In this document: positions 3,194 to 21,087 of the stretch, in pieces
How the letters are laid out: each line of letters begins with the position of its first letter
Position numbering within the stretch: position 1 is the stretch's first letter
DNA from: a virus
Lineage: Duplodnaviria > Caudoviricetes
Virus record (IMG/VR): IMGVR_UViG_3300036985_000776
Coordinates: 1 to 24,099 of that record
Length of the DNA stretch: 24,099 nt
Direction: 5' to 3' (one strand)
Position numbers and translations under genes: made by a program
Notes under the pieces: generated by a model
What the model saw: only the letters and a program-made list of their open reading frames with translations
Told to the model about the DNA's origin: nothing
Database searches by the model: none

Positions 3194-3396
3194 TTACGCC
3201 GCCCGCGCCAATGATCACTGCCGAAGGCATGCCGCCAGAAGTTATTGCGGTGCTGAAGGAGGCTTGTGACAGCAAGAAGCCGTGGAACGTGCGGGACGTT
3301 GCTGCCGCCATGATCAATGCATGGCCCAACGCGAACAAGGCATACTTCGCGCAGGGTCCGCACCTGATGTTGCCGTTGTTGAAGGCGGGCACATGA
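3190..3396 (+). CDS. hypothetical protein
   Basis: GGAGAG RBS; ATGA overlaps at both ends. Confidence 0.7.
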   Translation: MITPPAPMITAEGMPPEVIAVLKEACDSKKPWNVRDVAAAMINAWPNANKAYFAQGPHLMLPLLKAGT

Positions 3397-4112
3397 ACGT
3401 CGGCGCGGCCATGGCTGGTGGCAACGGCAAGCGCCGTGCCGGTGACTTCTACCCGACGCCGTGGGCGGCCACAGAGGCGATGCGGAGGGCGTTGAGCCTG
3501 CCGCGGGCTATCTGGGAGCCTGCCTGCGGCGATGGCGCTCTGGCGCGCGCTCTGGAGCGGCACGGGCACATCCTGACCTGTTCCGACATTGAGCCGCGCA
3601 TGGATGGGGCCGCAAAGCTCGACTTTGTAAACCAGAATGTCGCTGTAAAGCGCACGGGGCGCTTTGCCATCGTCACGAACCCGCCGTTCAGTCTGGCCGA
3701 ATCCTTCATCCGCCGGTCGCTGTCGATCACGCCGCAGGTTGTGCTGTTACTGAAGGCGAACTACTGGAACGCGGCCAGCAGGCTGCCGCTGTACGCGGAG
3801 CATCCGCCCAGCCGCGTGATGCCGCTGACGTTTCGCATAGACGTGACAGGGCAGGGAAATCCGACTATGGATGTCTGCTGGTATGCATGGGGCTTTGAAG
3901 GCCCGGCCTTCATGCCGCTGCCCAAGCCCAAGGAACCCCATGGAAGCTCTGACCTATCAGGAGACCCTAGAGATAGCGGAGATGCGGGACGCCATCACCG
4001 GCTACGCGATACGCTCAGGGCAGGTAATCCTGATCTACGACTTCACGAAAGTCGTGAAGATCCTGATCAAGATGCACAAGGTCACGCTGAACGAGGCGAT
4101 GGAGATGGCTGA
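3393..4112 (+). CDS. orphan DNA N6-adenine methyltransferase
   Basis: DFYPTP (motif X), WEPACGDG (motif I, SAM binding), IVTNPPF (motif IV); no adjacent restriction enzyme; last ~57 codons overlap the next gene. Confidence 0.85.
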   Translation: MNVGAAMAGGNGKRRAGDFYPTPWAATEAMRRALSLPRAIWEPACGDGALARALERHGHILTCSDIEPRMDGAAKLDFVNQNVAVKRTGRFAIVTNPPFSLAESFIRRSLSITPQVVLLLKANYWNAASRLPLYAEHPPSRVMPLTFRIDVTGQGNPTMDVCWYAWGFEGPAFMPLPKPKEPHGSSDLSGDPRDSGDAGRHHRLRDTLRAGNPDLRLHESREDPDQDAQGHAERGDGDG

Positions 4113-4224: not shown

Positions 4225-4435
4225 CGAATTGTTTGCGGAGTTTTCCAAGGCGCTGACGCGCATGGATCTGATCCAGAACCTGATCCTCGACCATGCGAAG
4301 GCGTGCGGCGATACGGTCGGCAGGGAGTCGGTCGATTTTTTTGCGGAGCAGATCGGGAAGAGCATCTACGACATGTATGAGTACCTGAACGAAATCAAGC
4401 TCGCCATGGATGTCGAGGCCCACAGGAAGATCTGA
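4196..4435 (+). CDS. hypothetical helical protein directly upstream of terminase
   Basis: AGGA at 4184; 79 aa; stop TGA overlaps terL ATG (TGATG). Confidence 0.65.
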   Translation: MSRETVRSTDELFAEFSKALTRMDLIQNLILDHAKACGDTVGRESVDFFAEQIGKSIYDMYEYLNEIKLAMDVEAHRKI

Positions 4436-6096
4436 TGGCCATCGTCCAGCTTCCGCAGATTGCGCGCCTGACCGGCAGTGCGGCACCGATTGATTCAAGC
4501 GAGACGCTGCGCGCCATCCAGAAGCGCAAGTGCGAGAAGTCTTTGGCCTACTTCATCCGCAAGGCGTGGAGCGTCATTGAACCCGGCCAGAAGTACGTTC
4601 ACGGCTGGCACATAGACTTTCTGTGCGCGCACCTTGAGGCCATCACCGCCGGTATGGAGGTCGATGACGAGCAGTTATACAATCGGCTTCTGATTAACGT
4701 GCCGCCGGGCACAATGAAGAGCCTGACGGTCGGCGTGTTCTGGCCTGCATGGGAGTGGGGGCCAATGAACATGCCCCACATGCGCTATGTCTGCGCCTCG
4801 CATAGCCAAGACCTGTCGATCCGCGACGGGCTGCGCATGCGCCGTCTGGTGATGTCGGAGTGGTATCGGAGCCTGTGGGGCGACCGTGTCGTGCTGACCG
4901 GCGACCAGAACCAGAAGACCAAGTTTGAAAACACGGCGACGGGCTTTCGGCAGGCAGCCGCGGCGGGTTCGATCACTGGTGCGCGTGGCGACAGGGTGAT
5001 CATCGATGACCCATTGTCCGTAGACGGAGCAAATTCGGATGCGATACGCGACAGCACGAACCAGTGGTTCCTTGAGGCCGTGCCGACGCGACTGAACAAC
5101 CCAATATCGTCGGCCATCGTCGTCGTGATGCAGAGACTGCATGAGGAAGACGTGAGCGGCGTCATCCTCGAAAAGGAACTGGGCTACGATCATATCATGC
5201 TGCCCATGCGCTATGATCCGTCGCGCGCGATGCCGACAAAGCTTGATTACCGGGATCCGCGCGAGGACGACGGCGAACTTCTGTTCCCTGAACGGTTCCC
5301 GGTCGAGGTGGTTGACCGCGACGAGAAGGCGATGGGTCCGTATGCCACTGCAGGCCAGTTCCAGCAGACGCCTGAGCCGCGGGGCGGTGGCATCATTAAG
5401 CGCGATTGGTGGCAGCTATGGGACACTGAAGCGTACCCTATGATGGACTTCGTCGTGGCCAGCGTGGATACGGCGTACACGGAGAAGACCGAAAACGATT
5501 TGTCGGCGCTGACGGTCTGGGGCATTTACTCGACCGACACTGTGGCGCAGGCCACGAAGGTCGTCGCCAAGAACGGCACGCTCTACGAATATTCCATGAA
5601 TGTCGAACGCGAATATGCGGAGCAGCATCCGAAGCTGATGCTGATGCATGCGTGGCAGGAGCGACTGCCGCTGCATGAGCTTGTGATGAAGATTGCGTCA
5701 AGCTGCACGCGCATGAAGGTCGATCTGCTTCTGATCGAAGGCAAGGCGTCAGGCCTGAGCGTGGCGCAGGAAATTCGCAGGCTCTACGGCAGCGAGACGT
5801 GGGGCGTGCAGATCATCAACCCCGGATCTCAGGACAAGATGAGCCGACTCTATTCGGTGCAGCACCTGTTTGCGGAGGGGCTAATCTTTGCGCCTGACAG
5901 GACGTGGGCCGATCAGGTGATCACGCAATGCGCCCAGTTCCCGCGCGCGAAGCACGACGATCTGGTGGACACGGTGAGCATGGCGCTGCGCCACCTGCGC
6001 TCTGCCGGGCTTCTCAGCAGGGCCGCGGAGCATCTGGAGGCCCTCGACAGGGCGAAGATGTCACCCGCGCGCATGACCCCGCTTTACGACGTGTGA
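4435..6096 (+). CDS. terL: terminase large subunit
   Basis: Walker A-like LLINVPPGTMKS, ITGARGD then Walker B VIIDDP, coupling motif VMQRLHEED, RNase H-like nuclease SVDTAY...HDDLVD. Confidence 0.95.
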   Translation: MAIVQLPQIARLTGSAAPIDSSETLRAIQKRKCEKSLAYFIRKAWSVIEPGQKYVHGWHIDFLCAHLEAITAGMEVDDEQLYNRLLINVPPGTMKSLTVGVFWPAWEWGPMNMPHMRYVCASHSQDLSIRDGLRMRRLVMSEWYRSLWGDRVVLTGDQNQKTKFENTATGFRQAAAAGSITGARGDRVIIDDPLSVDGANSDAIRDSTNQWFLEAVPTRLNNPISSAIVVVMQRLHEEDVSGVILEKELGYDHIMLPMRYDPSRAMPTKLDYRDPREDDGELLFPERFPVEVVDRDEKAMGPYATAGQFQQTPEPRGGGIIKRDWWQLWDTEAYPMMDFVVASVDTAYTEKTENDLSALTVWGIYSTDTVAQATKVVAKNGTLYEYSMNVEREYAEQHPKLMLMHAWQERLPLHELVMKIASSCTRMKVDLLLIEGKASGLSVAQEIRRLYGSETWGVQIINPGSQDKMSRLYSVQHLFAEGLIFAPDRTWADQVITQCAQFPRAKHDDLVDTVSMALRHLRSAGLLSRAAEHLEALDRAKMSPARMTPLYDV

Positions 6097-6244: not shown

Positions 6245-8617
6245 ATGCCAATGATGCCGGGCCTGTCGCCCTCAATTCGTCAAATCTATCCTGAAGAGGA
6301 TGCACCGGCGGGTGACGATACCGAAATCACGATCAATGACGCGCCGGAAGGCGAAGACGTGCCGGAAATGGACGATTCCGGCAACATCCTGTCCATTGAA
6401 CACCCGGACGGTTCGATCACCGTAAGCATTGACGGCCAGCCGCTTGGGCAGGCCCCCGGCGTGGAAACCAAGCGCGATTGGTTCGATAATTTAGTAGACG
6501 ATATTGACGGCATGGAGCTTTCGCGGATCTCCGAAGAGCTTCTTCGCGGCGTGCGCGACGACATTCAGAGCCGTCAGGATTGGATTGAGAACCGGGCGAC
6601 CGGCCTGAAGCTGCTGGGCCTGAAGATTGAGCTTCCGGCCACGCAAGGCTCCGCTGACGGCGCGCCGGTCGAGGGCATGAGCAAGGTGCGGCACCCGCTC
6701 TTGCTTGAGGCCGTGCTGCGCTTCCAAGCGAACGCGCGCAGCGAGTTGCTTCCGACAGATGGCCCGGTGAAGATCCGCGAGGACAACAATAACTCCGATC
6801 CGCAATCCGACCGAATTGCTGACGCGCTGGAGCGCGACCTGAACCACTACCTCACCAGCACGGCCACGGAATATTACCCCGACACCGACCGCATGCTGCT
6901 GATGCTGGGCTTCGGCGGCACGGCGTTCAAGAAAGTGTACTTTTGTCCGTTACGGAATAGGCCGGTCTCCGAATCGGTTGATGCCGACGACCTGATCGTG
7001 AACCAATCTGCGACCGACCTGAGCAACGCCAAGCGCATCACCCACCGCATCCTGATGCGGTCGTCCATCGTAAAGCGCATGCAGATCTTGGGCGTCTACA
7101 AGGACGACGATCTCTCGACGCCGCTGGCCCTCAACCTCGACAGCGTGCAGCAGGAGAAGAACGCCATTCAGGGCGTTGCCGATACCACCCGCAATTCCGA
7201 AGAGCGCGACCGCGAGATCTATGAGATCTACTGCGAACTGGACATCAAGGGCTACCAGCACAAGCGCAAGGGCAAGGTCACCGGCCTTGAGATCCCGTAC
7301 CGCGTGACGGTGGACGTTTCGAGCCGCAAGATCCTGTCCATCGTGCGCAACTACGACGAAGAGACCAAGGATCTGCCCGAAGTCCGCGCCAATTTCGTCA
7401 AGTACACGTTCGTGCCGGGGCTGGGTTTCTACGACATTGGCCTGCTTCATATTCTGGGAAACACGACCAACGCCATCACCGCGGCGTGGCGCGAGCTTCT
7501 CGATGCTGGCATGTTCGCCAATTTCCCCGGCTTCCTCATGTCGGACACTGGCGCGCGGCAGAACACGAATATCTTCCGCGTTCCGCCGGGCGGTGGCGCG
7601 CTGGTGAAGACCGGCGGCCTGCCGATCAGCCAAGCCATCATGCCGCTTCCGTACAAGGAACCCAGCGGCGCGCTGATGCAGTTGGTGGACAACATTGCCC
7701 AGACCGGCATGCGCGTTGGCGGCACGTCGGAGCTTCAGGTGGGCGAAGGCCGCGCGGACGCGCCCGTGGGCACCACACTGGCCATGATCGAACAGGCGGC
7801 CAAGGTGCTGAACGCCGTCCACAAGCGCATGCATGCGGCGCAGGCGGAAGAGTTTGCCCTGATCGTCCGGTGCTTCAGGGAGAACCCGGAGAGCTTCTGG
7901 CAGCGCAACCGCAAGCCCGCCCTGCCGTGGGATGAGCAGACCTTTATAACGGCAATAAATCGGGTTGATCTGGTGCCGCAGGCGGATCCGAACACGGCGA
8001 GCCACGCGCAGCGCCTAATGAAGATCATGGCCCTGAAGCAGCTTCAGGGGTCGAACCCTGAACTGTACGATGCCGTGGCGGTCGATAAGGCGGCGTTGCA
8101 GGCGATTGGCTGGAGCAACCCTGAGCAGTTCATGGTTCCGTCTAACAAGCAGGATGAAACCCCGCCGGAAGTCCTGCAGGGCATCGAAGAACTCAAGATC
8201 AAGCGTCAGGACGCCGATACCAAGGCGAAGGCCGCTCAGGCCAAGGCGCAGGCAGACATGGCCAATGCGCAATCGAACCAGATCAGGGCGCAGGCCGACA
8301 TGCTCAAGGCCCAGCAGCCACCGGCAGGCGGCCTTGCGCCACCGCAGGAGGATCCGTCAAAGATCGTCGGCCTGCATCTCAAGGCGAGGGATATGCAGTT
8401 CAAGCAGGAGCGCGCCGCGGCTGACGATGTCAACCGGGATCTCGACCGGCAGGCTGACGTGACCATGAAGAAGATGGATCTGGAGAGCGACAGCATCAAG
8501 GCTTCGGCAGAGCGCGAGCATACCATGGCGGTTCAAGAGCGTGATCACTTGAGCGAGCATATCAGGCACGCTCACGAACTTATGGCTAAGACAAACTCAG
8601 AAGGCGAGGAAAAGTAA
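6245..8617 (+). CDS. portal protein (P22-like) with long acidic N-terminal and helical C-terminal extensions
   Basis: Follows terL; HPLLLEAVLRFQA, GTAFKKVY, PYRVTVD, FVKYTFVPGLGFYDIGL, APVGTTLAMIEQ...AVHKRMH and VPQADPN motifs characteristic of this portal group. Confidence 0.9.
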   Translation: MPMMPGLSPSIRQIYPEEDAPAGDDTEITINDAPEGEDVPEMDDSGNILSIEHPDGSITVSIDGQPLGQAPGVETKRDWFDNLVDDIDGMELSRISEELLRGVRDDIQSRQDWIENRATGLKLLGLKIELPATQGSADGAPVEGMSKVRHPLLLEAVLRFQANARSELLPTDGPVKIREDNNNSDPQSDRIADALERDLNHYLTSTATEYYPDTDRMLLMLGFGGTAFKKVYFCPLRNRPVSESVDADDLIVNQSATDLSNAKRITHRILMRSSIVKRMQILGVYKDDDLSTPLALNLDSVQQEKNAIQGVADTTRNSEERDREIYEIYCELDIKGYQHKRKGKVTGLEIPYRVTVDVSSRKILSIVRNYDEETKDLPEVRANFVKYTFVPGLGFYDIGLLHILGNTTNAITAAWRELLDAGMFANFPGFLMSDTGARQNTNIFRVPPGGGALVKTGGLPISQAIMPLPYKEPSGALMQLVDNIAQTGMRVGGTSELQVGEGRADAPVGTTLAMIEQAAKVLNAVHKRMHAAQAEEFALIVRCFRENPESFWQRNRKPALPWDEQTFITAINRVDLVPQADPNTASHAQRLMKIMALKQLQGSNPELYDAVAVDKAALQAIGWSNPEQFMVPSNKQDETPPEVLQGIEELKIKRQDADTKAKAAQAKAQADMANAQSNQIRAQADMLKAQQPPAGGLAPPQEDPSKIVGLHLKARDMQFKQERAAADDVNRDLDRQADVTMKKMDLESDSIKASAEREHTMAVQERDHLSEHIRHAHELMAKTNSEGEEK

Positions 8618-8618
8618 A

Positions 8619-9584
8619 ATGTCAGCACGCGACGATTTTGGATCAAGCGCCGGTAGAGGGCCGGGCGCTGGCGGCCTTGGCAATGGCGGCATCGGCGGCG
8701 GGATGGGCGCTGGCTCACGCGGCGGCGGTGCAGGCTACAACGGCGGCGCAGGCTCGCGCACCGGCCTGACCACCGGCACTACGTGGCACGGCAATACGGC
8801 CTTCGGCGCGCCCGGTGGCCGTGCAACCGGCTATGCGACACGCGATGCTAAAAGCCTTGGCCGCGCTGGCATGGGTCCGACGATGGGGCAGTATGGCGGG
8901 TTCAAGACAATGTCTGGCAACCCCATGTTTGGAGGATCCCCCGTTCAGGGGCAGTCGTTCAATGGCATGGGTGCTGGTCAGGCATTTGGCAGAGCCAAGC
9001 AGGCATACGATGCGTGGAAAGATTCTCAAATAGAGCAGGGGCCGCTCAATCGCCCGACGACCAATAGGCCAACCACCGGCAGGCCAAAGCCTTCCGTTGT
9101 GTCGCCGTTCACGCCGCCAGAACTGGATATTCCAGATCCTCTGCCGTTCCCCCCGGCTGAAGAAGTGCTGCCCCCTCAGATAGATAATTCTGATTACGAT
9201 TGGAGGCCGCCCAAGGATTTCTTTTCATCTACCGCGCCAAAACCTTGGCCGGGGCAAGGATCAAACCCGGAAGATTACGCGGCACCAAGCCCAAGGAAAA
9301 GCCCTCCCGGCACGCGCACCATTGACTCCACCAACGGGGGTTACCCCAGCCTAAGCCCTCCCGGCGGTGGCTCGTATCCACCGGGGGTGTATGCCTCTGG
9401 CGGCCTTGTGCGCTCTGCAATGCTCACCGCAAAGGGCGTGAACAATGGCATGAAGGGCGCGCTTGTCGTCAACCAGAAGGGCAATGTCGTCAGCGGCAAG
9501 CTCAAGTCTGGTCCGATTGTACAGGTTGGCACGGGCGGCAACGTGATGAAGCGTGGCACGGTCAAGATCACTTGGGGTTCGTAA
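8619..9584 (+). CDS. Gly/Pro-rich low-complexity protein, putative internal virion protein; one YASGGLV motif
   Basis: Starts 1 nt after the portal stop; Gly-rich N-half, Pro-rich middle. Confidence 0.7.
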   Translation: MSARDDFGSSAGRGPGAGGLGNGGIGGGMGAGSRGGGAGYNGGAGSRTGLTTGTTWHGNTAFGAPGGRATGYATRDAKSLGRAGMGPTMGQYGGFKTMSGNPMFGGSPVQGQSFNGMGAGQAFGRAKQAYDAWKDSQIEQGPLNRPTTNRPTTGRPKPSVVSPFTPPELDIPDPLPFPPAEEVLPPQIDNSDYDWRPPKDFFSSTAPKPWPGQGSNPEDYAAPSPRKSPPGTRTIDSTNGGYPSLSPPGGGSYPPGVYASGGLVRSAMLTAKGVNNGMKGALVVNQKGNVVSGKLKSGPIVQVGTGGNVMKRGTVKITWGS

Positions 9585-9596
9585 GGGGCAGGCGCG

Positions 9597-10823
9597 ATGG
9601 ATAGTTCCGACAAAATTGCGCAAGCCTTGCGCCTTGCAAGATCGACCGGCGGTAAGCTGGAACTAGATCGTGCGAAGGAAGCAAGGCGGCGTGCGCCGGG
9701 ACAAGTCGCGCCGTCCAAATACATGCCCGGCGTGCCGCGGCAGGTGCGCGCTGATGGTGGTAAGGCGGATGAGAACATAGATCAGTTCTTCGGCCCGACA
9801 GACCCCATCCTGCGCCGCCGCTATTACACCGGCACGTCGAAGGACAAGGATTTTACCGCGTTCCAAGAGAGCCGACATGGTACATGGCTCACGGATGACC
9901 CGAGTGAAGCGAGCAGTTATGCGGAGCAGAACGACAGTCAGAATCTGCGGCTGGTCCCCGGCACATGGAACTACGAAAAGGTGAACAGCGCCGCGCGCGT
10001 GATCCCCGCTTATGTGCGCGTTGAGAACCCGTATACGGGCGAACTCCCGGATTTTGCGCGCACCGACAATTATAAGAAAGCGCAGAGCGATTGGTTTGAC
10101 ACGCTGCGCAGAAAAGGGCACGATGCATGGGTGCCAGCAAGCAGCGAGGGAAGGCTTGTCGTAAAGCTCACGAATCAGGGCACGCACATCAAGAGCGCAA
10201 TCGGCAATTCTGGTGCCTATGACCTAAAAAAGAAGCATTTGGCCAAGGCCGAAGGCGGCGAGGTGGACGATCAGGATCCGACGCCAGACATCTCCAACCC
10301 CATGTCGATCTTCCCGAAGCCGCAGCGCATGTTCCCGGAAGAAGCGAGGCCGCCGGGCGGCCAGTATTTGGCGATGCCTGACAAGCGCGATGTCACCGGC
10401 CACAAATCCGCGGCAGCTACAATCGGCGTAAAGCCTGATGGAAAACCATTCTTCAGGGCTTCGGCTGATGCCGTGGAAAAGACCGGCAGCACCGGGCGCG
10501 GCACTGCGGCGGTGAAGACCAACTTGTTCAAGAAGAAGGCTGGCTGGAAATGGCTCGACGTGCCCACCGGGCATGAGGAAGCAGACACAATCGTGTCGGT
10601 TGAGCATCGCGGCAAGCATCACTATGCGCTGAATGCTCACTTTCCGAATGGCGTGGACCTTGCGCGTTACGAAAATTCGCCGTCAGAGCCTCGCCTACGC
10701 CCGACGACGACCGGAAATGTAGAATTGGGGCCGCAGGCTGGATCTATTGTTGTCCGCGGCAAGGAACATCCAGTATATCGCCATGTAATTGTTAAATCTT
10801 CAGGCGGTTTTGTTGGCGATTGA
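9597..10823 (+). CDS. two-domain putative virion cargo protein: ADP-ribosyltransferase-like (ART-PolyVal type) domain plus unknown domain
   Basis: YYTGT..DFTAF...GTWLTDDPSEASSYA...VIPAYVRVENP...LRRKGHDA...IKSAIGNSGAYD follows the pattern of ART domains of phage polyvalent proteins; four xxxGG motifs. Confidence 0.7.
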   Translation: MDSSDKIAQALRLARSTGGKLELDRAKEARRRAPGQVAPSKYMPGVPRQVRADGGKADENIDQFFGPTDPILRRRYYTGTSKDKDFTAFQESRHGTWLTDDPSEASSYAEQNDSQNLRLVPGTWNYEKVNSAARVIPAYVRVENPYTGELPDFARTDNYKKAQSDWFDTLRRKGHDAWVPASSEGRLVVKLTNQGTHIKSAIGNSGAYDLKKKHLAKAEGGEVDDQDPTPDISNPMSIFPKPQRMFPEEARPPGGQYLAMPDKRDVTGHKSAAATIGVKPDGKPFFRASADAVEKTGSTGRGTAAVKTNLFKKKAGWKWLDVPTGHEEADTIVSVEHRGKHHYALNAHFPNGVDLARYENSPSEPRLRPTTTGNVELGPQAGSIVVRGKEHPVYRHVIVKSSGGFVGD

Positions 10824-10832
10824 TTTGAAAAA

Positions 10833-10861
10833 TTGGACAAAACCGCAAGAAAAGCTATGCT
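10833..10861 (+). promoter_or_regulatory. putative internal promoter
   Basis: AT-rich gap with TTGGAC(A), 16-17 nt spacer, TATGCT (same -10 as at 6106). Confidence 0.45.
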
Positions 10862-10887
10862 GACAGCGAAATTTTGGGATCTTAGCC

Positions 10888-13257
10888 ATGAACAACGATG
10901 AAAGGTCTGCTCAGGCGCTGAGAATTGCAAAGTTGCAGCGTTACAGCGACCCCCAAAGCGAAAAACTGGGCAATTGGAACTGGCGGCCTTTGCCGCAAGT
11001 GGCCGAAGAGCTTGGAAACCTGCGCGAAATCCCTTCGCATGTGCAGAATTTTGGTCGCTTCATGGATGATACGGCCAAAAGGGCCAAGAATCAGGGCCTC
11101 ACGGCACGCGACCTGATTAAAGCCTACACAATTACGCTCTCCAGCATTCAGCGCGGGGCTTTATCGACCGACAAGATACGGGCAAAGGGCATGCCGGTGC
11201 CGAATGCCGGTCCCATGCTGCGCCCGGAAGGCGCTTTTGGCGAATGGCTGCACACGCCGGGCGGCCAAGCCTATCTTGACGCCGCCGAAAAGGGGCAGGT
11301 GCATGAAGGCGCGCTCAAGGACATGGCTTATCGCTTCGGCCATTACGGTCTGGTGAACAAACTGGGCGAGGGCATGCGCTGGGCCGCGGAGAACCTACCC
11401 GGCAAGGAAAGTCAGGTTTCCCATTTGGTTGCCGCGGCCATGGAGAAGGCCAGCCCGGTAAGGGAATGGCGAGATTTTGCCAAAGGCTTGCCCGGCATTG
11501 ATACCAGCAAGGCGGGTTTCGTGGCCTCGCTCATGGGTCGCGGTGATCAGCCGACATTCGACGCCCGGCAGCGGATCCTGCACACCGGCATGACCAGCAA
11601 GCAGGCTGGCAATATGATTGCCGGTGAAAAGATGAACCCCAAGGCACAGGACGCACTTGACCGTCTTATTTCTCGCCAGAAGGCAATGAACCTCGACCTG
11701 CCGGAAGAACTCAGCCCCTACTACCAGCATCTCGCGCATCATGCGGTATGGGATCAGGCCGAAGGCGACCAGACAACCCATCAGGACGTGATGGATTCCA
11801 TGCGGCACGCTGCAAGCGGCGGGCGCATCAAGGGCGGTCACGTTGCCAATCATCCGCTCGCGCAGGTCATGCGCGCCATGGGCTTACCCGGCTTGATTCA
11901 CAAGGCAGTCGGTGGCGAGGTCAGCGATGACGAGGCAGCCGACACGCTGAACGCGCTCAAGTCTGGTGCCATCACGTCGGATCAAGCCATTCAGCAGGCC
12001 ATGAGCCGCATTGGCGATGTCACCTCGCAGGATCCCATGATCGCCCAGCACGCGCGTGATGTCGAAGAGACATTGCGCACGAAAATGGGTCATGAAATGG
12101 GAACCGGCAGCTACTACAAGGTTACCCAGCCAATTGAAGCCCGTGACGTTCGCCCCAAGGTCAAGGGTATGCCGAAGAACCCGCTGAAAAAGCCGGTGAA
12201 CAAAACTTGGGAAGATTTCTACAATTCAGCCAAGGGCGGAACGCTTCTCAATTTGGGCGGCGACCGTTCAAATTTTGGTATTTTGACGCATATTGGTCAG
12301 GAGAAGCTTGCGTGGCCGGTGAAGCTCTACGCTGGCCCGAAATACATGCTTGAACCCAACAGGGGTGAGGTTTGGGCAAACAATCCTAATCATGCGACGG
12401 CATTAAGGAACGTCATTGAGACGGCGGCAAAGAAGGGCGATGTCTATGGTGCATATGCGCCAATGGGCCAGACAGGTTCAGATTCTGCTCATCATATGTT
12501 TGATGCGCTCATGGCGCAAATTCCAAACCGCAACATAGATTCAAAAGATGCGGCTGATTTTGACCAGCTTATTAAAAGCGGCGCTCACATCACCGGCAAT
12601 GGCAAGGTTGATGTTGCTCTTAGGAATTCTGCAAAAGAATATCTGGAAAAGTGGCCCGGAATTCTAAATTCTAAAGCAGCAAGCAAATTTGCATTGAAGC
12701 TTCCGGGCAATCAGCGCGCAGCCATTGTAAAGGCCATGGACAAGGGATACTGGCGTGACCGTGATTTTCCTGCGGTTGGCATTACCCGTGTAGCTGTGAC
12801 GGATCCCGACGTTGTGGGTGCTGGCGGAAATTTGATCGGCCACCGAATTGCCAAGCTTGACCCGGACGCAATCCTTCAAAACATCAAGACGCGAATGAAG
12901 CACCCAACATATTCATCTCCAACATTGGGAGAATATGAAGCCGACGTTCCGTTGCTGCCCCGTCAAGATGTTTTGGTTGATGCTACGAAAAAGCTCATGG
13001 GCAAACCGACAACGTCCGGGCAAATCGTTCACCCTTATTCCATGGACGCGCTTGGGCGCAGCACTTATCGCAAGCTCACCGAAGAGCAGAAGCAGACGCA
13101 ACCGATCAATCAAGAGATGATTGACAGCATCCAATCTGCTATTGAACGCCGAAAAACTTTTGGCATCAAGACCGGTGGTCGGGTTTCTAAATTCGGCTCT
13201 GACGCTGTCCAGAAGGCCGTGAACATTGCAAGGCAGCACAAACGGGGACGCCCGTAA
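10888..13257 (+). CDS. large two-domain putative virion cargo protein: HhH-GPD glycosylase-like domain plus unknown ~400-aa domain
   Basis: LPGIDTSKAGF...PTFD helix-hairpin-helix/Asp pattern and HHAVWD in the N-terminal domain; domains separated by AASGGRI and KAVGGEV. Confidence 0.7.
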   Translation: MNNDERSAQALRIAKLQRYSDPQSEKLGNWNWRPLPQVAEELGNLREIPSHVQNFGRFMDDTAKRAKNQGLTARDLIKAYTITLSSIQRGALSTDKIRAKGMPVPNAGPMLRPEGAFGEWLHTPGGQAYLDAAEKGQVHEGALKDMAYRFGHYGLVNKLGEGMRWAAENLPGKESQVSHLVAAAMEKASPVREWRDFAKGLPGIDTSKAGFVASLMGRGDQPTFDARQRILHTGMTSKQAGNMIAGEKMNPKAQDALDRLISRQKAMNLDLPEELSPYYQHLAHHAVWDQAEGDQTTHQDVMDSMRHAASGGRIKGGHVANHPLAQVMRAMGLPGLIHKAVGGEVSDDEAADTLNALKSGAITSDQAIQQAMSRIGDVTSQDPMIAQHARDVEETLRTKMGHEMGTGSYYKVTQPIEARDVRPKVKGMPKNPLKKPVNKTWEDFYNSAKGGTLLNLGGDRSNFGILTHIGQEKLAWPVKLYAGPKYMLEPNRGEVWANNPNHATALRNVIETAAKKGDVYGAYAPMGQTGSDSAHHMFDALMAQIPNRNIDSKDAADFDQLIKSGAHITGNGKVDVALRNSAKEYLEKWPGILNSKAASKFALKLPGNQRAAIVKAMDKGYWRDRDFPAVGITRVAVTDPDVVGAGGNLIGHRIAKLDPDAILQNIKTRMKHPTYSSPTLGEYEADVPLLPRQDVLVDATKKLMGKPTTSGQIVHPYSMDALGRSTYRKLTEEQKQTQPINQEMIDSIQSAIERRKTFGIKTGGRVSKFGSDAVQKAVNIARQHKRGRP

Positions 13258-13276
13258 ACCTAGCTAGGAGACGACA

Positions 13277-15751
13277 ATGAGCGATATGGCGAAGAAGGCC
13301 CGTGCGGCCATGAAGGAGCGGGCGCAGCGCCGCGCCGAACCCGGCAAGAGCGACATCGATGCTTCCGGCTGGCGCGAGCCGCTGATGGAGACCACAAAGA
13401 AGACGGGCGCTCGCCCGATCACCAAGCGCGCGTTCAAGCGCGGCGGCAAGGTGAACATGAAGGCCGAAGGGCCTGAAGGTCTGAAGCACGCTGGCAAGAA
13501 GCCGCGCGGCAATCACGATGACGCGGCCATGGACAAGAAGCTCATCAAGTCCATGGTGAGCCAGAAGGCGCTGAAGAAGGCGGATGGCGGCCAGACCGTC
13601 AATCGCGCGGGCAAGGGTGACTATGCCGGTAACTATCCGGCTGATTTGTCGAACGCTGATCTGGCAAAGATTCTCGCCGCGAAGGCCGCGGCAGACGCCA
13701 AGGAAAAGGCATTTCAGGCCAACCAGCCGCACAAGCGTGGCGGCAAGGTCGCTCACGACAAGGATTGCGCGTGCAAGGCGTGCGGTGGCGCGGCCATGGG
13801 CAAGGCTGATGGCGGCAGCACCTACGGCGATTCAACCCCGCTTCGTCTGGTGAAGACCATCAAGGGTTCTAACCCGAACAAGCACGCCAAGGTCTACAAG
13901 GACAAGGATTGGGGCGAGTACCGAGTCAAGCATTATGAGAACGGCAAGCATCTCGAAAAGGCCGACGCTCATACCGACGACAAAGAAGACGCCATGGATA
14001 CGGCGAACTATTTTGTGAATAAGAAGCGCGGCGGCAGCGTCAATCACATGGGCAAGGCTTCCGGTGGTGATGTCGAAGACAATTCGCCGCCCGACGCAAT
14101 GGCCGGTCTTCCGCGTTACAATGAAGACGCCGTCAACAAGGCGATTGCCGCTTCAAACCGTTCCGGCAAGAAGATCGGCAAGAAGGAAGCCGAAATGATC
14201 CACGCCGTGCTTAAGGGCCGCACCGGACGCAATGACGGCGGAAAAGATAATTCTAACTCTGATGACCAATTTAAGCATCCGTATTTTGGCGATGTTCGCC
14301 AGTACGAAGGCAAGAAATGGGACGAAGAAAAGGAAAAGTGGATCGATAAAAAGAGCCGCACCGGGCGCAAGTCTGGCGGTCGCACGGGCAAGGCTGGCGG
14401 TGGAAAATTCGGTATCGACAACCCGTTTGAGGGTGAAGCCGGTGACGCGCTCGACATGGGCGCATCGATCATGTCGCCCGCCTACGCGCTCGCGCGTGGC
14501 AAGCTCCCCGGCCTGAACGGCGTTATGGCTGGCCTGATGGGCGGCAAGGGCAAGAAGGCCGGTGGCGCTGCCAAGGGCAACTATGAGGGCGGCACCCGCC
14601 CGACCGGCGGTCGCATTGCCAAGCAGGGCGGTGGGTCGCTGCAGGGCCTCAACATAGGCCGTGGCATGGGCAACAGCAGCATGGGCGGCGGTCAGTCCGG
14701 TATGATGGGCCGGGCGAACGGCATGGGCCGCGGAATGGGTGGAATGGGCCGTGGGATGGGTGGCAACCCCCCGATTGGCACCAACCCCGCGACGGGCATG
14801 CCCCGCCCCGACGCAATGCTGGGAGTGATGCCAGCCCGCCCGGTTCTGGGCCGCGATGGCGCAAGCTATAACTCCCCGCCCATGTCAATGCCGCCCGGCC
14901 TTGGCCGCGGCATGCCTGCGCCGCTTTCGGGTGCAATGCCCATGGGCCAGCAGCCCTATGGAAACATGTCACAGATGGGGGCGCAGCAGAGCGCCATGGG
15001 TGCCCCGCTTAACGCTCTTTCCGGTCAAAGCGCCATGGGTACCCCGCTGGGTTCTCTCTATGGTGGCGCTCCGATTGGCCTCAAGACCGGCGGTCGTGCG
15101 CAGCGCAAGAGTGGCGGTCGCATTGCCAAGCAGGGTGGCGGCAGCCTGCAGGGGGGCCAGAAGGAGGGCGCGGGTGATGAAAACCTGCGGAGCATGCTCA
15201 AGCAGGCCATGAAAACTTCTGGGGGCCACCCCATGGCCACCATGATGCAATTGATGGATGACCCCAGTGCGCTTTTTGCGGCAGCCCGTAATGGCCGCGG
15301 CAAAGAAGTGATGCCTACTGGTTCTGGCGCATCGTCTGGAGAAGCCATGCCCACTGGTTCTCGCGTACCGTATTATGAGACTCTGGGCCGTAAGGATGGC
15401 GGTCGGACCAAGGGCAAGACCAGCATCAACATCAATATCAATACGGCTCCCAAGCCGCAGATGCCCATGCCCATGCCAATGCCGCCCCTGCCGCCCATGG
15501 GCGCTGGTGGCCCGCCTATGGGTATGCCCCCGGATGCCGGTGGCCCGCCCCCCGGCATGCCGCCTATGCCCCCCATGGGCGCTGGTGGTCCTCCGCCCGG
15601 TATGCCGCCCCTGCCGCCCCCCGAAATGATGGCTGCAATGGGCCGCAAGGCTGGTGGTCGCGTCTATCGTTCTGCCAAGGACATGGATGCCGGTGCTGGT
15701 GGCGGTCTGGGCCGTCTCGAAAAGACGGAAATCCAGAAGCGCAAGAGATAA
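13277..15751 (+). CDS. basic low-complexity protein with about 17 [KR]xxGG motifs and a Pro/Met-rich C-terminus; putative internal virion (poly)protein
   Basis: AGGAG RBS; 824-aa ORF with strong codon bias; repeated KRGGKV/KADGG/RKSGGR units. Confidence 0.85.
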   Translation: MSDMAKKARAAMKERAQRRAEPGKSDIDASGWREPLMETTKKTGARPITKRAFKRGGKVNMKAEGPEGLKHAGKKPRGNHDDAAMDKKLIKSMVSQKALKKADGGQTVNRAGKGDYAGNYPADLSNADLAKILAAKAAADAKEKAFQANQPHKRGGKVAHDKDCACKACGGAAMGKADGGSTYGDSTPLRLVKTIKGSNPNKHAKVYKDKDWGEYRVKHYENGKHLEKADAHTDDKEDAMDTANYFVNKKRGGSVNHMGKASGGDVEDNSPPDAMAGLPRYNEDAVNKAIAASNRSGKKIGKKEAEMIHAVLKGRTGRNDGGKDNSNSDDQFKHPYFGDVRQYEGKKWDEEKEKWIDKKSRTGRKSGGRTGKAGGGKFGIDNPFEGEAGDALDMGASIMSPAYALARGKLPGLNGVMAGLMGGKGKKAGGAAKGNYEGGTRPTGGRIAKQGGGSLQGLNIGRGMGNSSMGGGQSGMMGRANGMGRGMGGMGRGMGGNPPIGTNPATGMPRPDAMLGVMPARPVLGRDGASYNSPPMSMPPGLGRGMPAPLSGAMPMGQQPYGNMSQMGAQQSAMGAPLNALSGQSAMGTPLGSLYGGAPIGLKTGGRAQRKSGGRIAKQGGGSLQGGQKEGAGDENLRSMLKQAMKTSGGHPMATMMQLMDDPSALFAAARNGRGKEVMPTGSGASSGEAMPTGSRVPYYETLGRKDGGRTKGKTSINININTAPKPQMPMPMPMPPLPPMGAGGPPMGMPPDAGGPPPGMPPMPPMGAGGPPPGMPPLPPPEMMAAMGRKAGGRVYRSAKDMDAGAGGGLGRLEKTEIQKRKR
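14606..15135 (+). repeat. 23-bp exact intragenic direct repeat (14606-14628 and 15113-15135) encoding GGRIAKQG
   Basis: GGCGGTCGCATTGCCAAGCAGGG twice; peptide GGRIAKQGGGSLQG duplicated. Confidence 0.9.
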
Positions 15752-16041: not shown

Positions 16042-16428
16042 ATGTCGATTATGCCTATGATGCATGAAGTGGATCCGGCAGAGGATCTGCGCACCAAGAT
16101 CGGTGACCTGTCGGGGTTCAATTTGATTGGCCCCAAGGTGCTGTGCGCAATCTATGTGCGCCCCGAAAAGACCAAGGGCGGGATCATTCTGAGCAACAAG
16201 ACCCGCGATGAAGACATTTATCAGGGCAAGATCGGCCTGATCGTGAAGGTTGGCGTCAATGTGGGCGTAGACCCCGATTGGTTTGGCGACAACAAGCTGG
16301 AAATAGGCGCATGGGCCGGGTTCCGCGCATCTGATGGCTATTCGCTCATCGTCAACGGCGTCAACTGTCGCATCCTTGAGGATGTCAGGGTTCAGTGCAT
16401 CGCCTCCCACCCTGATTTGATTTGGTAA
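16042..16428 (+). CDS. groES: phage GroES-like co-chaperonin (Cpn10)
   Basis: KVL...PEKTKGGIIL mobile loop, GLIVKVG, then G.W..F....G.....NG...RIL.D..V. Confidence 0.85.
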   Translation: MSIMPMMHEVDPAEDLRTKIGDLSGFNLIGPKVLCAIYVRPEKTKGGIILSNKTRDEDIYQGKIGLIVKVGVNVGVDPDWFGDNKLEIGAWAGFRASDGYSLIVNGVNCRILEDVRVQCIASHPDLIW

Positions 16429-16438
16429 GGAGAGACCA

Positions 16439-17353
16439 ATGGCCGACGAAAACGAAACAATTGAGATTGAAATCAAGGATGATCCAGCCCCGAAGGCTGA
16501 AGACGACATCCTGATTCAAGACGCGGTCGAAGAAAAGCCCGCAAAGCGGCGCGAAATCAGCCCGCGTGAGGGCATTCAGGAACTCAAGCAGAAGCTTGAG
16601 CTTGAGCGTCAGGCTCGCCTTGAGGCTGAGAACCGCGAGCGCAACGCATCGTCTCAGGCGTATGCCATGCGCAATGAGGTGGCGAGCAACCAGCACCAGC
16701 TTGTCAGCAATACGCTCGATTTTGTGAAGCAAGAGCGGGCGAACATGAAGGCCGCCTATAGTCAGGCGCTGTCTGCTGGTGATTACGATGCCGCTGCGGA
16801 GATCAACGACCGCATTGCCGACATGGCCGCCAAGATCCTTGATCTGGAAAACGGCAAGGCCGCCATGGAAGCTCAGGCACAGCAGCCCCAGCAGCCCCAG
16901 CAGCAGCAGTCCGGCGATTCCGTCGAGGCCTTTGCTTCGCGTCTCACGCCGCGGTCTGCATCGTGGGTCCGTTCGCACCCTGAATATGTGCGGAACCCGC
17001 GCCTGAACCAGAAGATGATTGCCGCTCACCAGATGGCCGTCGCTGATGGTATTGAGCCGGATACGGATGAGTATTTCGGCTATGTCGAAGACATGCTGCA
17101 GGTGAAGAACCAGCCTTATCGTGACGGTGGCGAAGAGTCCATGTCGGGCGCATCCAAGCCCGTCCAGCGCCGATCGTCGCCTGCGGCAGCCCCGGTGAGC
17201 CGCAGCATGAGCAGCAGCGGCGGAAGGCCGAATGTCGTCACGCTCACGCCCGAAATGCGAGAGATCGCCAAGAACTTGGGCCAGACGCCAGAAGAATATG
17301 CAAAGAACCGCCTCGCGCTCATCCGCGAAGGCCGTATCAACAGCGACAATTGA
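16439..17353 (+). CDS. putative capsid scaffolding protein
   Basis: Acidic N-terminus, long coiled coil, C-terminal VTLTPEMREIAKNLGQTPEEYAK helix pair; position in head module. Confidence 0.7.
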   Translation: MADENETIEIEIKDDPAPKAEDDILIQDAVEEKPAKRREISPREGIQELKQKLELERQARLEAENRERNASSQAYAMRNEVASNQHQLVSNTLDFVKQERANMKAAYSQALSAGDYDAAAEINDRIADMAAKILDLENGKAAMEAQAQQPQQPQQQQSGDSVEAFASRLTPRSASWVRSHPEYVRNPRLNQKMIAAHQMAVADGIEPDTDEYFGYVEDMLQVKNQPYRDGGEESMSGASKPVQRRSSPAAAPVSRSMSSSGGRPNVVTLTPEMREIAKNLGQTPEEYAKNRLALIREGRINSDN

Positions 17354-17364
17354 TGGAGAGAAAA

Positions 17365-17874
17365 ATGGAAAACGACACAACGAACGCTGAAGGCAAGGGC
17401 AAGATGTCCTCGCTGAAATCGGCCAAGAAGCGCGCCGAAGAAATCAGAAAGCACCTTGGTGGAGACCTTGACGAGGGCGTCGATGATTTCTTTGTAGACC
17501 CCAACAGCATCCCGGAAGGGTGGACCTATGAGTGGAAGCGCCACACGGTGTTTGGTATGGAGGATCCGACATATCAGGTCGCCCTTCGCCGCACCGGCTG
17601 GGCACCCGTGCCTGCCGCTCGCCACCCTGAGATGATGCCTGTCGGGCACAAGGACGACACGATTCTCCGCAAGGGCATGATCCTCATGGAGCGTCCAGAA
17701 GAGATCACTCAAGAGGTGCGCTCTATCGACAAAAAGCGCGCGCGGGATCAGGTGCGCGTCAAGGAACAGCAGCTTAGTGAGGCCCCGAACGGCCAATTTG
17801 AGCGCAAAAACAAGGATTCTTCGCTGGCAAAGGTGAAGAAATCATTTGAGGCGATGCCGATCCCGGAAGAATAA
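17365..17874 (+). CDS. conserved hypothetical head-module protein
   Basis: TGGAGAG RBS before ATG 17365; IPEGWTYEWKR...GWAPVP...HPE...GMILMERP motif. Confidence 0.8.
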   Translation: MENDTTNAEGKGKMSSLKSAKKRAEEIRKHLGGDLDEGVDDFFVDPNSIPEGWTYEWKRHTVFGMEDPTYQVALRRTGWAPVPAARHPEMMPVGHKDDTILRKGMILMERPEEITQEVRSIDKKRARDQVRVKEQQLSEAPNGQFERKNKDSSLAKVKKSFEAMPIPEE

Positions 17875-19059: not shown

Positions 19060-19971
19060 ATGGCTGTTAATCTCTCAGCAATCAAAGACCTTCTCCTTCC
19101 CGGTCTCCGTGGGGTCGAAGGCAAGTACGAGATGATCCCGTCTCAGTACGACAAGATCTTCACGAAGCACGATTCGAAGATGGCGCTGGAGCGTACCGCT
19201 GAAATGCGTTACCTCGGCCTCGCGCAGTTGAAGACCGAAGGCGGCCAGACCGCTTTCGACAACGGCGCTGGCGAACGCTACGTCTACAATCAGGAACACA
19301 CGGAAATTGGTCTCGGTTACGGCATCACCCGCAAGGCGATTGACGACAACCTCTACAAGACCCAGTTCCACCCGTCGAACCTTGGTCTCATCGAAAGCTT
19401 CCAGCAGACGAAGGAGATCTACGGTGCGTCGATCCTGAACACGGCGACGACCTACAATGCTGCAGTTGGCGGCGACGGCGTGGCGCTCTGCTCCACGGCT
19501 CACCCCATCGACGGCGGCACTGTCAGCAATCGTCCTGCAGTGGACGTTGATCTGAACGAAGCCACGCTGCTGAATGCGATGATCGCAGTCCGCACGAACT
19601 TCAAGGATCAGGCCGGTCTGAAGGTCTTCGCCCGCGCTCGCAAGCTGATCGTTCCTCCGCAGCTTGAGCCGGTCGCAATTCGTCTGCTGAAGACGGAACT
19701 GCGCCCCGGCACCGCGGACAACGACACGAACGCCATTCTCATGACATCGGGCGGCCTGCCTGAGTCGTTCATGACGAATGACTTCCTCACGTCAACTCGC
19801 AATTGGTTCCTGCTGACGAACATCGATGGTCTCTCTTACATGGAGCGCATCAAGTTCGAAACGGACATGCAGGTTGACTTCGTAACGGACAACCTGTTGG
19901 TCAAGGGCTACGAGCGTTACAGCTTCGGCTACTACAACTGGCGTGCCCTTTTCGGTTCGTTCCCCTCTTAA
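19060..19971 (+). CDS. major capsid protein (Mu gpT-like, HK97 fold)
   Basis: LLPGL, GYGITRKAIDDNLY, GGDGVALCSTAHP, KLIVPPQL, NDFLT...WFLLT, YERYSFGYYNWR motifs; 303 aa; strongly biased codons. Confidence 0.92.
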   Translation: MAVNLSAIKDLLLPGLRGVEGKYEMIPSQYDKIFTKHDSKMALERTAEMRYLGLAQLKTEGGQTAFDNGAGERYVYNQEHTEIGLGYGITRKAIDDNLYKTQFHPSNLGLIESFQQTKEIYGASILNTATTYNAAVGGDGVALCSTAHPIDGGTVSNRPAVDVDLNEATLLNAMIAVRTNFKDQAGLKVFARARKLIVPPQLEPVAIRLLKTELRPGTADNDTNAILMTSGGLPESFMTNDFLTSTRNWFLLTNIDGLSYMERIKFETDMQVDFVTDNLLVKGYERYSFGYYNWRALFGSFPS

Positions 19972-20494: not shown

Positions 20495-20806
20495 ATGAAG
20501 GGTCGCAAAGGTAAGGCCAGCGGTGGCGAGACCATGTCTGGCAAGAAGTCGTGGGATGAAGATCTCTCCGACAAGCCCATGCGCTACACGGCAAACAGCA
20601 AGGTTAATTCCGAAGCTGAAGAGCGCAAGAGCGGTGGTCGCACCAAGAAGAATGTTGGTGGTGCTGCCGGTGTAGCTGCACGGGCAAACGGCGGTCGCGC
20701 CGCCCGCAAGTCGGGTGGCCGCACGGGTTCGAACATGAACCCGCTGTCGTCCGCTCATTCTGGTACGCCCGCCAAGGGCCGTCCCGGCGGCAACCGCTAC
20801 GACTAA
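20495..20806 (+). CDS. small highly basic protein with five [KR]xxGG motifs
   Basis: AGGAGG RBS; KASGG, RKSGG, KNVGG, RANGG, RKSGG. Confidence 0.8.
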   Translation: MKGRKGKASGGETMSGKKSWDEDLSDKPMRYTANSKVNSEAEERKSGGRTKKNVGGAAGVAARANGGRAARKSGGRTGSNMNPLSSAHSGTPAKGRPGGNRYD

Positions 20807-20847: not shown

Positions 20848-21087
20848 ATGGCCAAGTCGCCTGCATGGCAGCGCAAGGAGGGCAAGAACCCCACCGGCGG
20901 CCTGAATGAAAAGGGTCGCGCATCCCTGCGCGCTCAGGGTCACGACATCAAGCGACCGCAGCCTGAAGGCGGCCCCCGCAAGGATAGCTTCTGCGCGAGG
21001 ATGAGCGGCATGACCGGCCCCATGAAAGACGAAAACGGCGAGCCAACGCGCAAGGCGCTGTCGTTGAGAAAGTGGAAATGTCCGTGA
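20848..21087 (+). CDS. conserved small basic phage protein (DUF6321-like by recollection)
   Basis: AWQRKEGKNPTGGLNEKGRAS...RKDSFCARM.G...ALSLRKWKC. Confidence 0.75.
   Translation: MAKSPAWQRKEGKNPTGGLNEKGRASLRAQGHDIKRPQPEGGPRKDSFCARMSGMTGPMKDENGEPTRKALSLRKWKCP

Follow-up and report, generated by a model that had tools for sequence, protein, structure and literature searches.

The window analysed here, a stretch of 24,099 nucleotides of Caudoviricetes DNA (positions 1 to 24,099 of IMG/VR record IMGVR_UViG_3300036985_000776), contains a phage head module with a terminase (4435-6096), a portal protein, four consecutive open reading frames (ORFs), a GroES, a scaffold candidate and a major capsid protein (MCP); all features described below from the portal to the small protein E103 are on the + strand. 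The four ORFs fill the interval between the SU10-like portal gene (6245-8617; PF23899, E 2e-12; phrog_1216) and the phage GroES gene (16042-16428; phrog_3188, E 2e-6), and encode three cargo proteins, the low-complexity A321 (8619-9584), B408 (9597-10823) and C789 (10888-13257), followed by D824 (13277-15751), the basic, low-complexity product of the conserved final gene of the interval. An earlier note on this DNA, made from its letters alone, had proposed that the four share a double-glycine motif serving either as a maturation cleavage site or as a capsid-loading tag. We describe here this motif, which lies at module junctions and protein termini, together with a second, helical tag and a small gene, named X, with which the motif co-occurs in related phages.

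The nine copies listed earlier for A321 (9390-9410), B408 (9639, 9747, 10245 and 10794) and C789 (11809, 11824, 11902 and 13165) were all recovered at these positions. Counted against 2000 composition-preserving shuffles, the pattern [KR]xxGGx[VIT] was enriched in D824 (9 copies vs 0.31 shuffled), B408 (2 vs 0.07) and C789 (2 vs 0.12) but had no match in A321, whose lone copy YASGGLV requires a Y/F variant, and the strict consensus first put forward fitted only seven copies in the four ORFs. The refined consensus spans seven residues, [RKYF]-[KA]-x-G-G-x-[VAIT], and a position matrix built from 577 copies of relatives gives [RYFKL]-[KA]-x-G-G-[RKE]-[VATI]. D824 contains 10 to 17 copies, the "about 17" first reported being obtained under a loose reading and 10 by the matrix trained on relatives. 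The presumed confinement of the motif to 8619-15751 did not hold, as the small basic protein E103 (20495-20806) has four copies (20513, 20624, 20681 and 20705), or three to five depending on the pattern. Its absence from terminase, portal and MCP was confirmed with the matrix, which matched none of TerL, portal, MCP, GroES or a tail-fibre-like ORF, but the loose pattern occurs once in MCP (19231) and has single matches in GroES (16168) and the tail-fibre-like ORF (23084). The GroES match lies in the mobile loop (16168-16188) and that of MCP also in a loop (19231-19251), both fitting the loose pattern only. Host GroE has a role in T5 tail cleavage.

The relatives examined comprised 160 related loci, which after dereplication gave 201 portal-GroES interval proteins, 855 other proteins and 22 E103 homologs. 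The interval proteins held 545 copies vs 22.7 shuffled and the E103 homologs 53 vs 1.2; the other proteins held 43 vs 24.1, several of these matches being misfiled interval or E103 proteins. Each of the 43 loci that run from portal to GroES (redundant loci counted) encodes a multi-copy motif protein. None of the replication genes carried the motif. Its second position was K in 416 and A in 132 of the 577 copies. The motif glycines were encoded by mixed codons (GGC 681, GGT 385, GGA 46, GGG 42) in 12 different codon pairs, and the constraint therefore acts on the protein.

Motif copies bracket globular domains, as had been claimed. In B408 an ART-PolyVal-like ADP-ribosyltransferase module (9825-10118; PF18760, E 1e-6, 30.1 bits, slightly missing the cut-off of 31.2) occupies amino acids (aa) 77-174 between copies at aa 54 and 220, and in D824 the copies at aa 179 and 252 flank an inserted phrog_7884 domain (13844-14026; aa 190-250). 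The ART module belongs to a family, M21, also present in the related locus L082, and is followed in B408 by an unnamed module, M8 (10260-10793), which is reused elsewhere in order in L004, L057 and L082. C789 likewise consists of two modules, M6 (10945-11805), which also occurs as stand-alone proteins with the motif at their end, and the unnamed M4 (11923-13161), which is shuffled among relatives. Family scans of the window gave no match for A321, PHROG searches none for M8 and M4, and PDB, PHROGs and Atlas no informative match for M6. The conserved M6 pattern G-x(4)-K-x-G-F...P-T-x-D-A-R presumably recalls HhH-GPD glycosylases, with no database match.

Across relatives, the segments between copies formed 21 families and 50 singletons recurring in varied order, exemplified by M6|M4 in C789, M6|M3|M4 in L150 and M1|M4 in L032, or by ART|M8 in B408 and InPase|ART|M8 in L082. 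Homology breakpoints coincided with copies: in unmasked comparisons 37% of 1400 internal ends of high-scoring segment pairs had a copy no more than 15 aa away, compared with 7% for random positions and 7% in a decoy control, and these unmasked and decoy runs ruled out a bias from X-masking as the source of the signal. The 72 M6 homologs, found independently, had no matrix-scored copy within the module, and by regular expression 48 had one directly after it, at most 10 residues from the C-terminus in 30 of the 48; the matrix, which undercounts outside its clade, detected only 18 of 72. The remaining homologs ended in a hydrophobic tail (10) or something else (7), or were truncated (7). A G/A/L-rich hydrophobic tail stands at the position of the motif in five module homologs without it (P0142, P0151, P0163, P0166 and P0177), and likewise in interval proteins of CRP-901 (L163 10172-11542 and 12321-13880); possibly, lineages that lack X use this tail for loading in place of the motif.

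A Pfam scan, which covered 49 of 79 dereplicated cargo proteins, gave matches in 28, namely ART-PolyVal (16, nine above cut-off), InPase (3), DUF7178 (3), GP88 (3), LPD23 (2), PBECR5 (2), methyltransferase (2), M15 (1) and cell-wall hydrolase (1). No MuF domain was matched in the window or in these 49 proteins. Judged from family matches, the domain set is that of polyvalent proteins, and the suggestion of a plug-and-play effector set was borne out, modules being joined at motif copies and shuffled among relatives.

Cargo proteins carry a further tag at their N- and/or C-ends, outside the terminal motif copy: an amphipathic helix with the pattern (IV)(VI)x[HRKQ]ALx(IVL)(AS)[RK]. In the window it follows the copy of A321 (9408-9434), opens B408 (9615-9641) and is found at both ends of C789 (10909-10932 and 13204-13233). 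Its frequency per 1000 residues was 3.4 at cargo termini vs 0.26 internally and 0.18 in other proteins, in counts made on the same protein set from which the pattern was derived. The probable scaffold protein (16439-17353), so named from its gene position and conserved C-terminus, is a candidate binder of this helix.

Both tags extend to genes of the ejection type. In four near-complete relatives, 25 of 294 ORF calls scored for the motif. Every one of the 25 was interval cargo, D, E103, gene X or one of two ejection-type genes; the second ejection-type gene has motif plus helix at its end. The tagged genes of MW202675 belong to the same classes, one matching the PHROG "DNA ejection protein"; tagged tail-module genes match this annotation as phrog_4287 and are positioned after the stabilization gene. 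The motif is thus confined to interval cargo, E103, X and ejection-type genes, and the E103 copies, the terminal helix and the occurrence of both tags on ejection genes of relatives go beyond what the earlier note had seen. Because ejection-type genes bear the same tags, the cargo, and tagged proteins in general, are very likely located inside the capsid.

In MW202675 (L164 9188-12745, UOF80297), motif copies join the gp7-like, S74, SLT and downstream parts into a fusion, whereas in HTVC023P and HTVC027P the ejection parts are separate genes, each starting with a copy, the copies in their ejection genes being of a looser form. The first ejection gene of L164, L177, L179, L183 and L186 is a fusion of a gp7-like N-terminus, an S74 auto-cleaving chaperone domain, motif-linked segments and a lytic transglycosylase, 1182 to 2138 aa long among complete copies. 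In HTVC027P (L170 7909-12040) and DSL-LC04 (L272 10344-12821) large motif genes lie between terminase and portal and not after the portal. HTVC023P gp43 (L161 22238-22555) has a DUF6321-like domain fused behind a motif copy; in the window such a domain (20848-21087) follows E103 as a separate, untagged ORF.

Gene X is a small, unnamed gene upstream of the GNAT and ejection genes, found in all four records at least 90% complete and missing from one 67%-complete record. Its homologs form 2512 clusters and it has no Pfam family. The usual layout is helix tag, motif, unit, motif, unit, the relatives' X carrying x-A-x-G-G followed by a G-x-[ST]-D...G-E-[FY]-V unit, and single-unit homologs end in GG-x-[VAIT]-COOH. 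A structure model (pLDDT 78, pTM 0.57) shows two hairpin plus helix-GxG-helix units; Foldseek gave no match for it and VIA matches (best Z 5.7) covered the N-terminal helical hairpin only. The X unit matched repeats of tape-measure proteins, repeats at whose start the motif stands (PDB 8zdo, E 2e-11), with further PHROG tape-measure matches and 179 phage records, and is homologous to the repeats in 8zdo and 8rk3. The nearest named Atlas cluster is crAss_CARG1 (0.84), a lead only. The unit was detected in 10 of 14 genomes, with motif counts above all shuffles in seven of the ten, while in the four genomes without it motif counts were at chance level; DSL-LC04, left out of training, has both unit and motif. 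The X unit is a candidate reader or protease of the motif, an assignment against which we would lean slightly; conserved residues of X include D72, H73 and E138.

Motif-like sites were also found in virion proteins of other phages, including one that is known to be cut. T5 pb2 is cleaved after R1127 (PMC10038345), and its residues 1127-1131 are R-A-E-G-G, the top-scoring of five GG sites in the protein; the T5 cut is thus placed between motif positions 1 and 2. In crAss001, the density of gp45 on the portal corresponds to residues 425-552 (PMC10172136), and residue 425 is the A of N-A-F-G-G, that is motif position 2 in the T5 register. The 26 gp45 homologs contain 44 [FY][AE]xGG vs 2.8 shuffled, and a regular-expression search of crAss gp46, 47, 49 and 50 found no copies. 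Motif-like copies flank both fragments of gp45 (L189 21988-24516) assigned by cryo-EM, 214-245 and 425-552, and for this reason the fragments may be separate cleavage products and not parts of one 420 A chain. Lambda gpH loses about 14 kDa through a cut whose site and catalyst were stated to be unknown in 2025 (PMC12617516), and it has motif-like copies at 733 and 778. In JBD30, the stretch homologous to the X unit was named "hook" by its authors, who, in the accessible part of their paper, found no peptidase motif and speculated on a cut at 1066 (PMC11445458).

Taking these observations together, we favour, with belief and doubt about equal, the reading that the motif is a load-and-release signal, which directs recruitment to the capsid and is then cut at x|[KA]-x-G-G. 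That the motif is cut at all seems somewhat probable, and the cut would fall ahead of GG and not after it, as T5 pb2 and crAss gp45 suggest; of the two functions first offered as alternatives, cleavage site and loading tag, the motif would probably have both. Tagged proteins would be recruited to the procapsid through the helix and/or through binding of the motif to X near the portal, and cutting between the first and second motif residues would then release effector modules and ejection subunits one by one for injection. If the reader recognises residues C-terminal to the cut, cargo would stay tethered to it by a C-terminal copy until cutting sets the cargo free, and copies lying as little as 2-10 residues from the C-terminus would make sense. 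For D824 and E103 a role as multivalent core or scaffold-like proteins is envisaged, both finally being cut into small basic peptides. Cutting is supported by the ejection genes, those that are separate in pelagiphages being fused through copies in this clade.

Several observations weigh against this reading. A search with the unit model found no X unit in the 24-kb window, and in HTVC023P, MinM2 and Caulobacter RW the unit is present with motif counts not above shuffles; five of the ten unit-bearing genomes belong to one clade and two records were covered only in part. With HTVC023P left out, the unit model finds HTVC023P at only E 0.59, and absences of the unit are weak evidence given this limited reach. 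No evident set of catalytic residues is seen in X, and the model shows disorder in the GG stretch of X itself. The likeness of the T5 and crAss sites to the motif was spotted post hoc: with the clade matrix the T5 site scores -5.0, and among the several motif-like copies of gp45 that at 425 ranks below the top nine. Comparison of the X unit with the T5 domain gave E 0.13 and with the crAss portal-bound domain hhalign E values of 0.38 and 0.12, neither of which establishes homology. The authors of the crAss001 structure treat gp45 as one continuous chain in the accessible text (PMC10172136), and the density edge may be mere disorder. In lambda gpH, the two copies flank a weak X-unit match (prob 32, E 5e-4), and a cut at 733/734 would remove 12.5 kDa compared with the roughly 14 kDa reported.

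The most serious competitor, unlikely in our judgement, is that the motif is a docking tag only, which binds X, scaffold, portal or coat and stays uncut, with one copy per module because tagged genes later fused. Docking alone would equally explain the 30 of 48 M6 copies close to the C-terminus and the GG-x-[VAIT]-COOH ends of single-unit X homologs, and agrees with the hydrophobic tail that replaces the motif in 10 of 72 M6 homologs like an alternative tag, with the ordered A425-G428 on the crAss portal, and with the 69 ORFs of the complete relative G003 that have no Pfam protease, the last also a point against cutting. P22 ejection proteins are moreover loaded through scaffold (PMC8402733, as far as accessible). 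Against it stand the T5 cut inside a motif-like site, the ejection polyproteins joined at copies where relatives have gene boundaries, and the separate helix tag outside the terminal copy.

An improbable second possibility is a nucleic-acid-binding or flexible basic repeat, co-packaged with DNA and having no specific protein partner. The repeats may resemble histone and ribosomal-protein tails, which are basic; both D824 and E103 are themselves basic and of low complexity (K+R fraction 0.16 and 0.21, respectively), and most copies are rich in K/R. Cargo proteins, however, often carry neutral or acidic variants (YADGGEV, KAEGGEV), and the fixed spacing, the hydrophobic +2 position, the single copy per junction and the co-occurrence with X also speak against this possibility. 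Cleavage after GG by an adenain-, C39- or ubiquitin-type protease, or by one like that of ASFV, was suggested in the earlier note and agrees with the invariant GG and its location in inter-module linkers, but appears quite improbable. The consensus sites of adenain, C39 and ubiquitin-type proteases have a hydrophobic P4 before x-G-G, whereas 548 of the 577 copies here have K or A at the corresponding position. Pfam detected no such cysteine protease in 69 of the 74 called ORFs of G003, most of which are without family. Many copies lie 2-10 residues from the C-terminus, in six M6 homologs a cut after GG would release only two residues, and the only mapped motif-like cut, that of T5, is two residues ahead of GG. 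That the motif is the footprint of a DNA recombination site for module swapping is very improbable: breakpoints coincide with copies, but the mixed glycine codons in 12 codon pairs speak against a site acting at the DNA level, and copies also occur in the non-modular D, E103 and ejection genes.

A wider proposal, which we consider unlikely to hold, is that the X and tape-measure unit is a small, previously undescribed protease family reading [AK]-x-G-G-x-[VIA] C-terminal to the cut, which would process the tape measures in which it resides (T5, lambda, JBD30, mycobacteriophages) and the crassvirus cargo C1, and would act as a free-standing, portal-docked loader and protease for an open-ended set of injected effectors in HTVC023P-related podophages.

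The phage itself is placed by its MCP (19060-19971), which is 86% identical to that of MW202675 and 37-40% identical to those of the pelagiphages HTVC023P (40%) and HTVC027P and of roseophage CRP-901; about 1600 IMG/VR stretches fit the capsid patterns. A podophage-type virion is indicated by the P22-like stabilization and ejection-type genes of complete relatives, and an alphaproteobacterial host for the clade is suggested by a GcrA homolog in G003 (L180 1594-2070). A conserved head-module gene at about 17362-17874, which phages lacking the motif also have, was considered as a candidate protease; its structure prediction gave a confident core model but no convincing fold match, the best (Z 3.8) being to GNAT-like fragments. 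HK97-, T4- or Clp-type prohead proteases had no match in the head genes of the window or in G003, although remote forms may escape such searches. Upstream of the terminase, 3393-3941 is a weak methyltransferase-like ORF (PF08241, E 0.004). Three records deposited with different cyanobacterial hosts, MinM2, Pag-Yong1 and Pra-JY27, do not differ in length (65,014) or in capsid score.

The motif bears on how podophages choose the proteins to be packaged and injected, and on the cutting of tape-measure proteins. For a group of phages abundant in aquatic samples, the seven-residue rule would allow virion cargo and the positions of cuts to be predicted from sequence, and the motif defines dozens of unnamed modules that are putatively injected effectors. 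In the window, matrix-scored copies place the predicted cuts at 51/52 and 217/218 in B408 and at 308/309 and 760/761 in C789. Predicted cuts elsewhere are 733/734 or 778/779 in lambda gpH, 424/425 in crAss gp45 and, in JBD30, 1019/1020 versus the 1066 of its authors' speculation. A processing system possibly common to crassviruses and tape-measure proteins would follow, and the tag might be of use as a portable capsid-loading signal. A literature search, with most subscription papers outside its reach, retrieved no description of the motif, and the accessible text of the HTVC023P preprint contains neither "motif" nor "protease" nor proteomics terms.

Compared with known systems, the cargo is closest in content to polyvalent proteins, which have 2-15 conflict-related domains per polypeptide in varied order and are predicted to be packaged and injected (PMC5512222, Iyer et al. 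2017, as far as accessible). The interval proteins have the same shuffled multi-domain modules, including ART-PolyVal, InPase, LPD23 and PBECR5, encoded with portal and terminase genes, but lack MuF and have modules bounded by a short linear motif and a terminal helix; the word "Glycine" is absent from the main text of that study in the form available. The phrog_4287-matching tagged genes after the stabilization gene are comparable to P22 gp7, gp20 and gp16. The ejection proteins of P22 depend on scaffold for loading, and the host's OpdA trims gp7, with no shared tag reported on them in the accessible text (PMC8402733). The tape measures of T5, at its cut, and of lambda, at positions 733 and 778 of gpH, likewise have a motif-like x-A-x-G-G, but there a single tail protein carries one or two such sites, as opposed to many head-cargo proteins and a free-standing X here. 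In crAss001, C1/gp45 (Pfam crAss_CARG1) is also capsid cargo with many motif-like copies, its portal-bound domain starting at one, although in the accessible text its authors describe neither motif nor cleavage (PMC10172136). In T4, short capsid-targeting signals load internal proteins that the gp21 maturation protease trims, and in SPN3US gp245 reportedly processes ejection proteins. Loading by short signals followed by trimming, as proposed here, is common to both, whereas the present P22-like podophages have another motif, with many internal copies that would split polyproteins. Without MuF and unlike the targets of proteases cutting after GG, the proposed system resembles T4/SPN3US loading and processing applied to polyvalent-type cargo.

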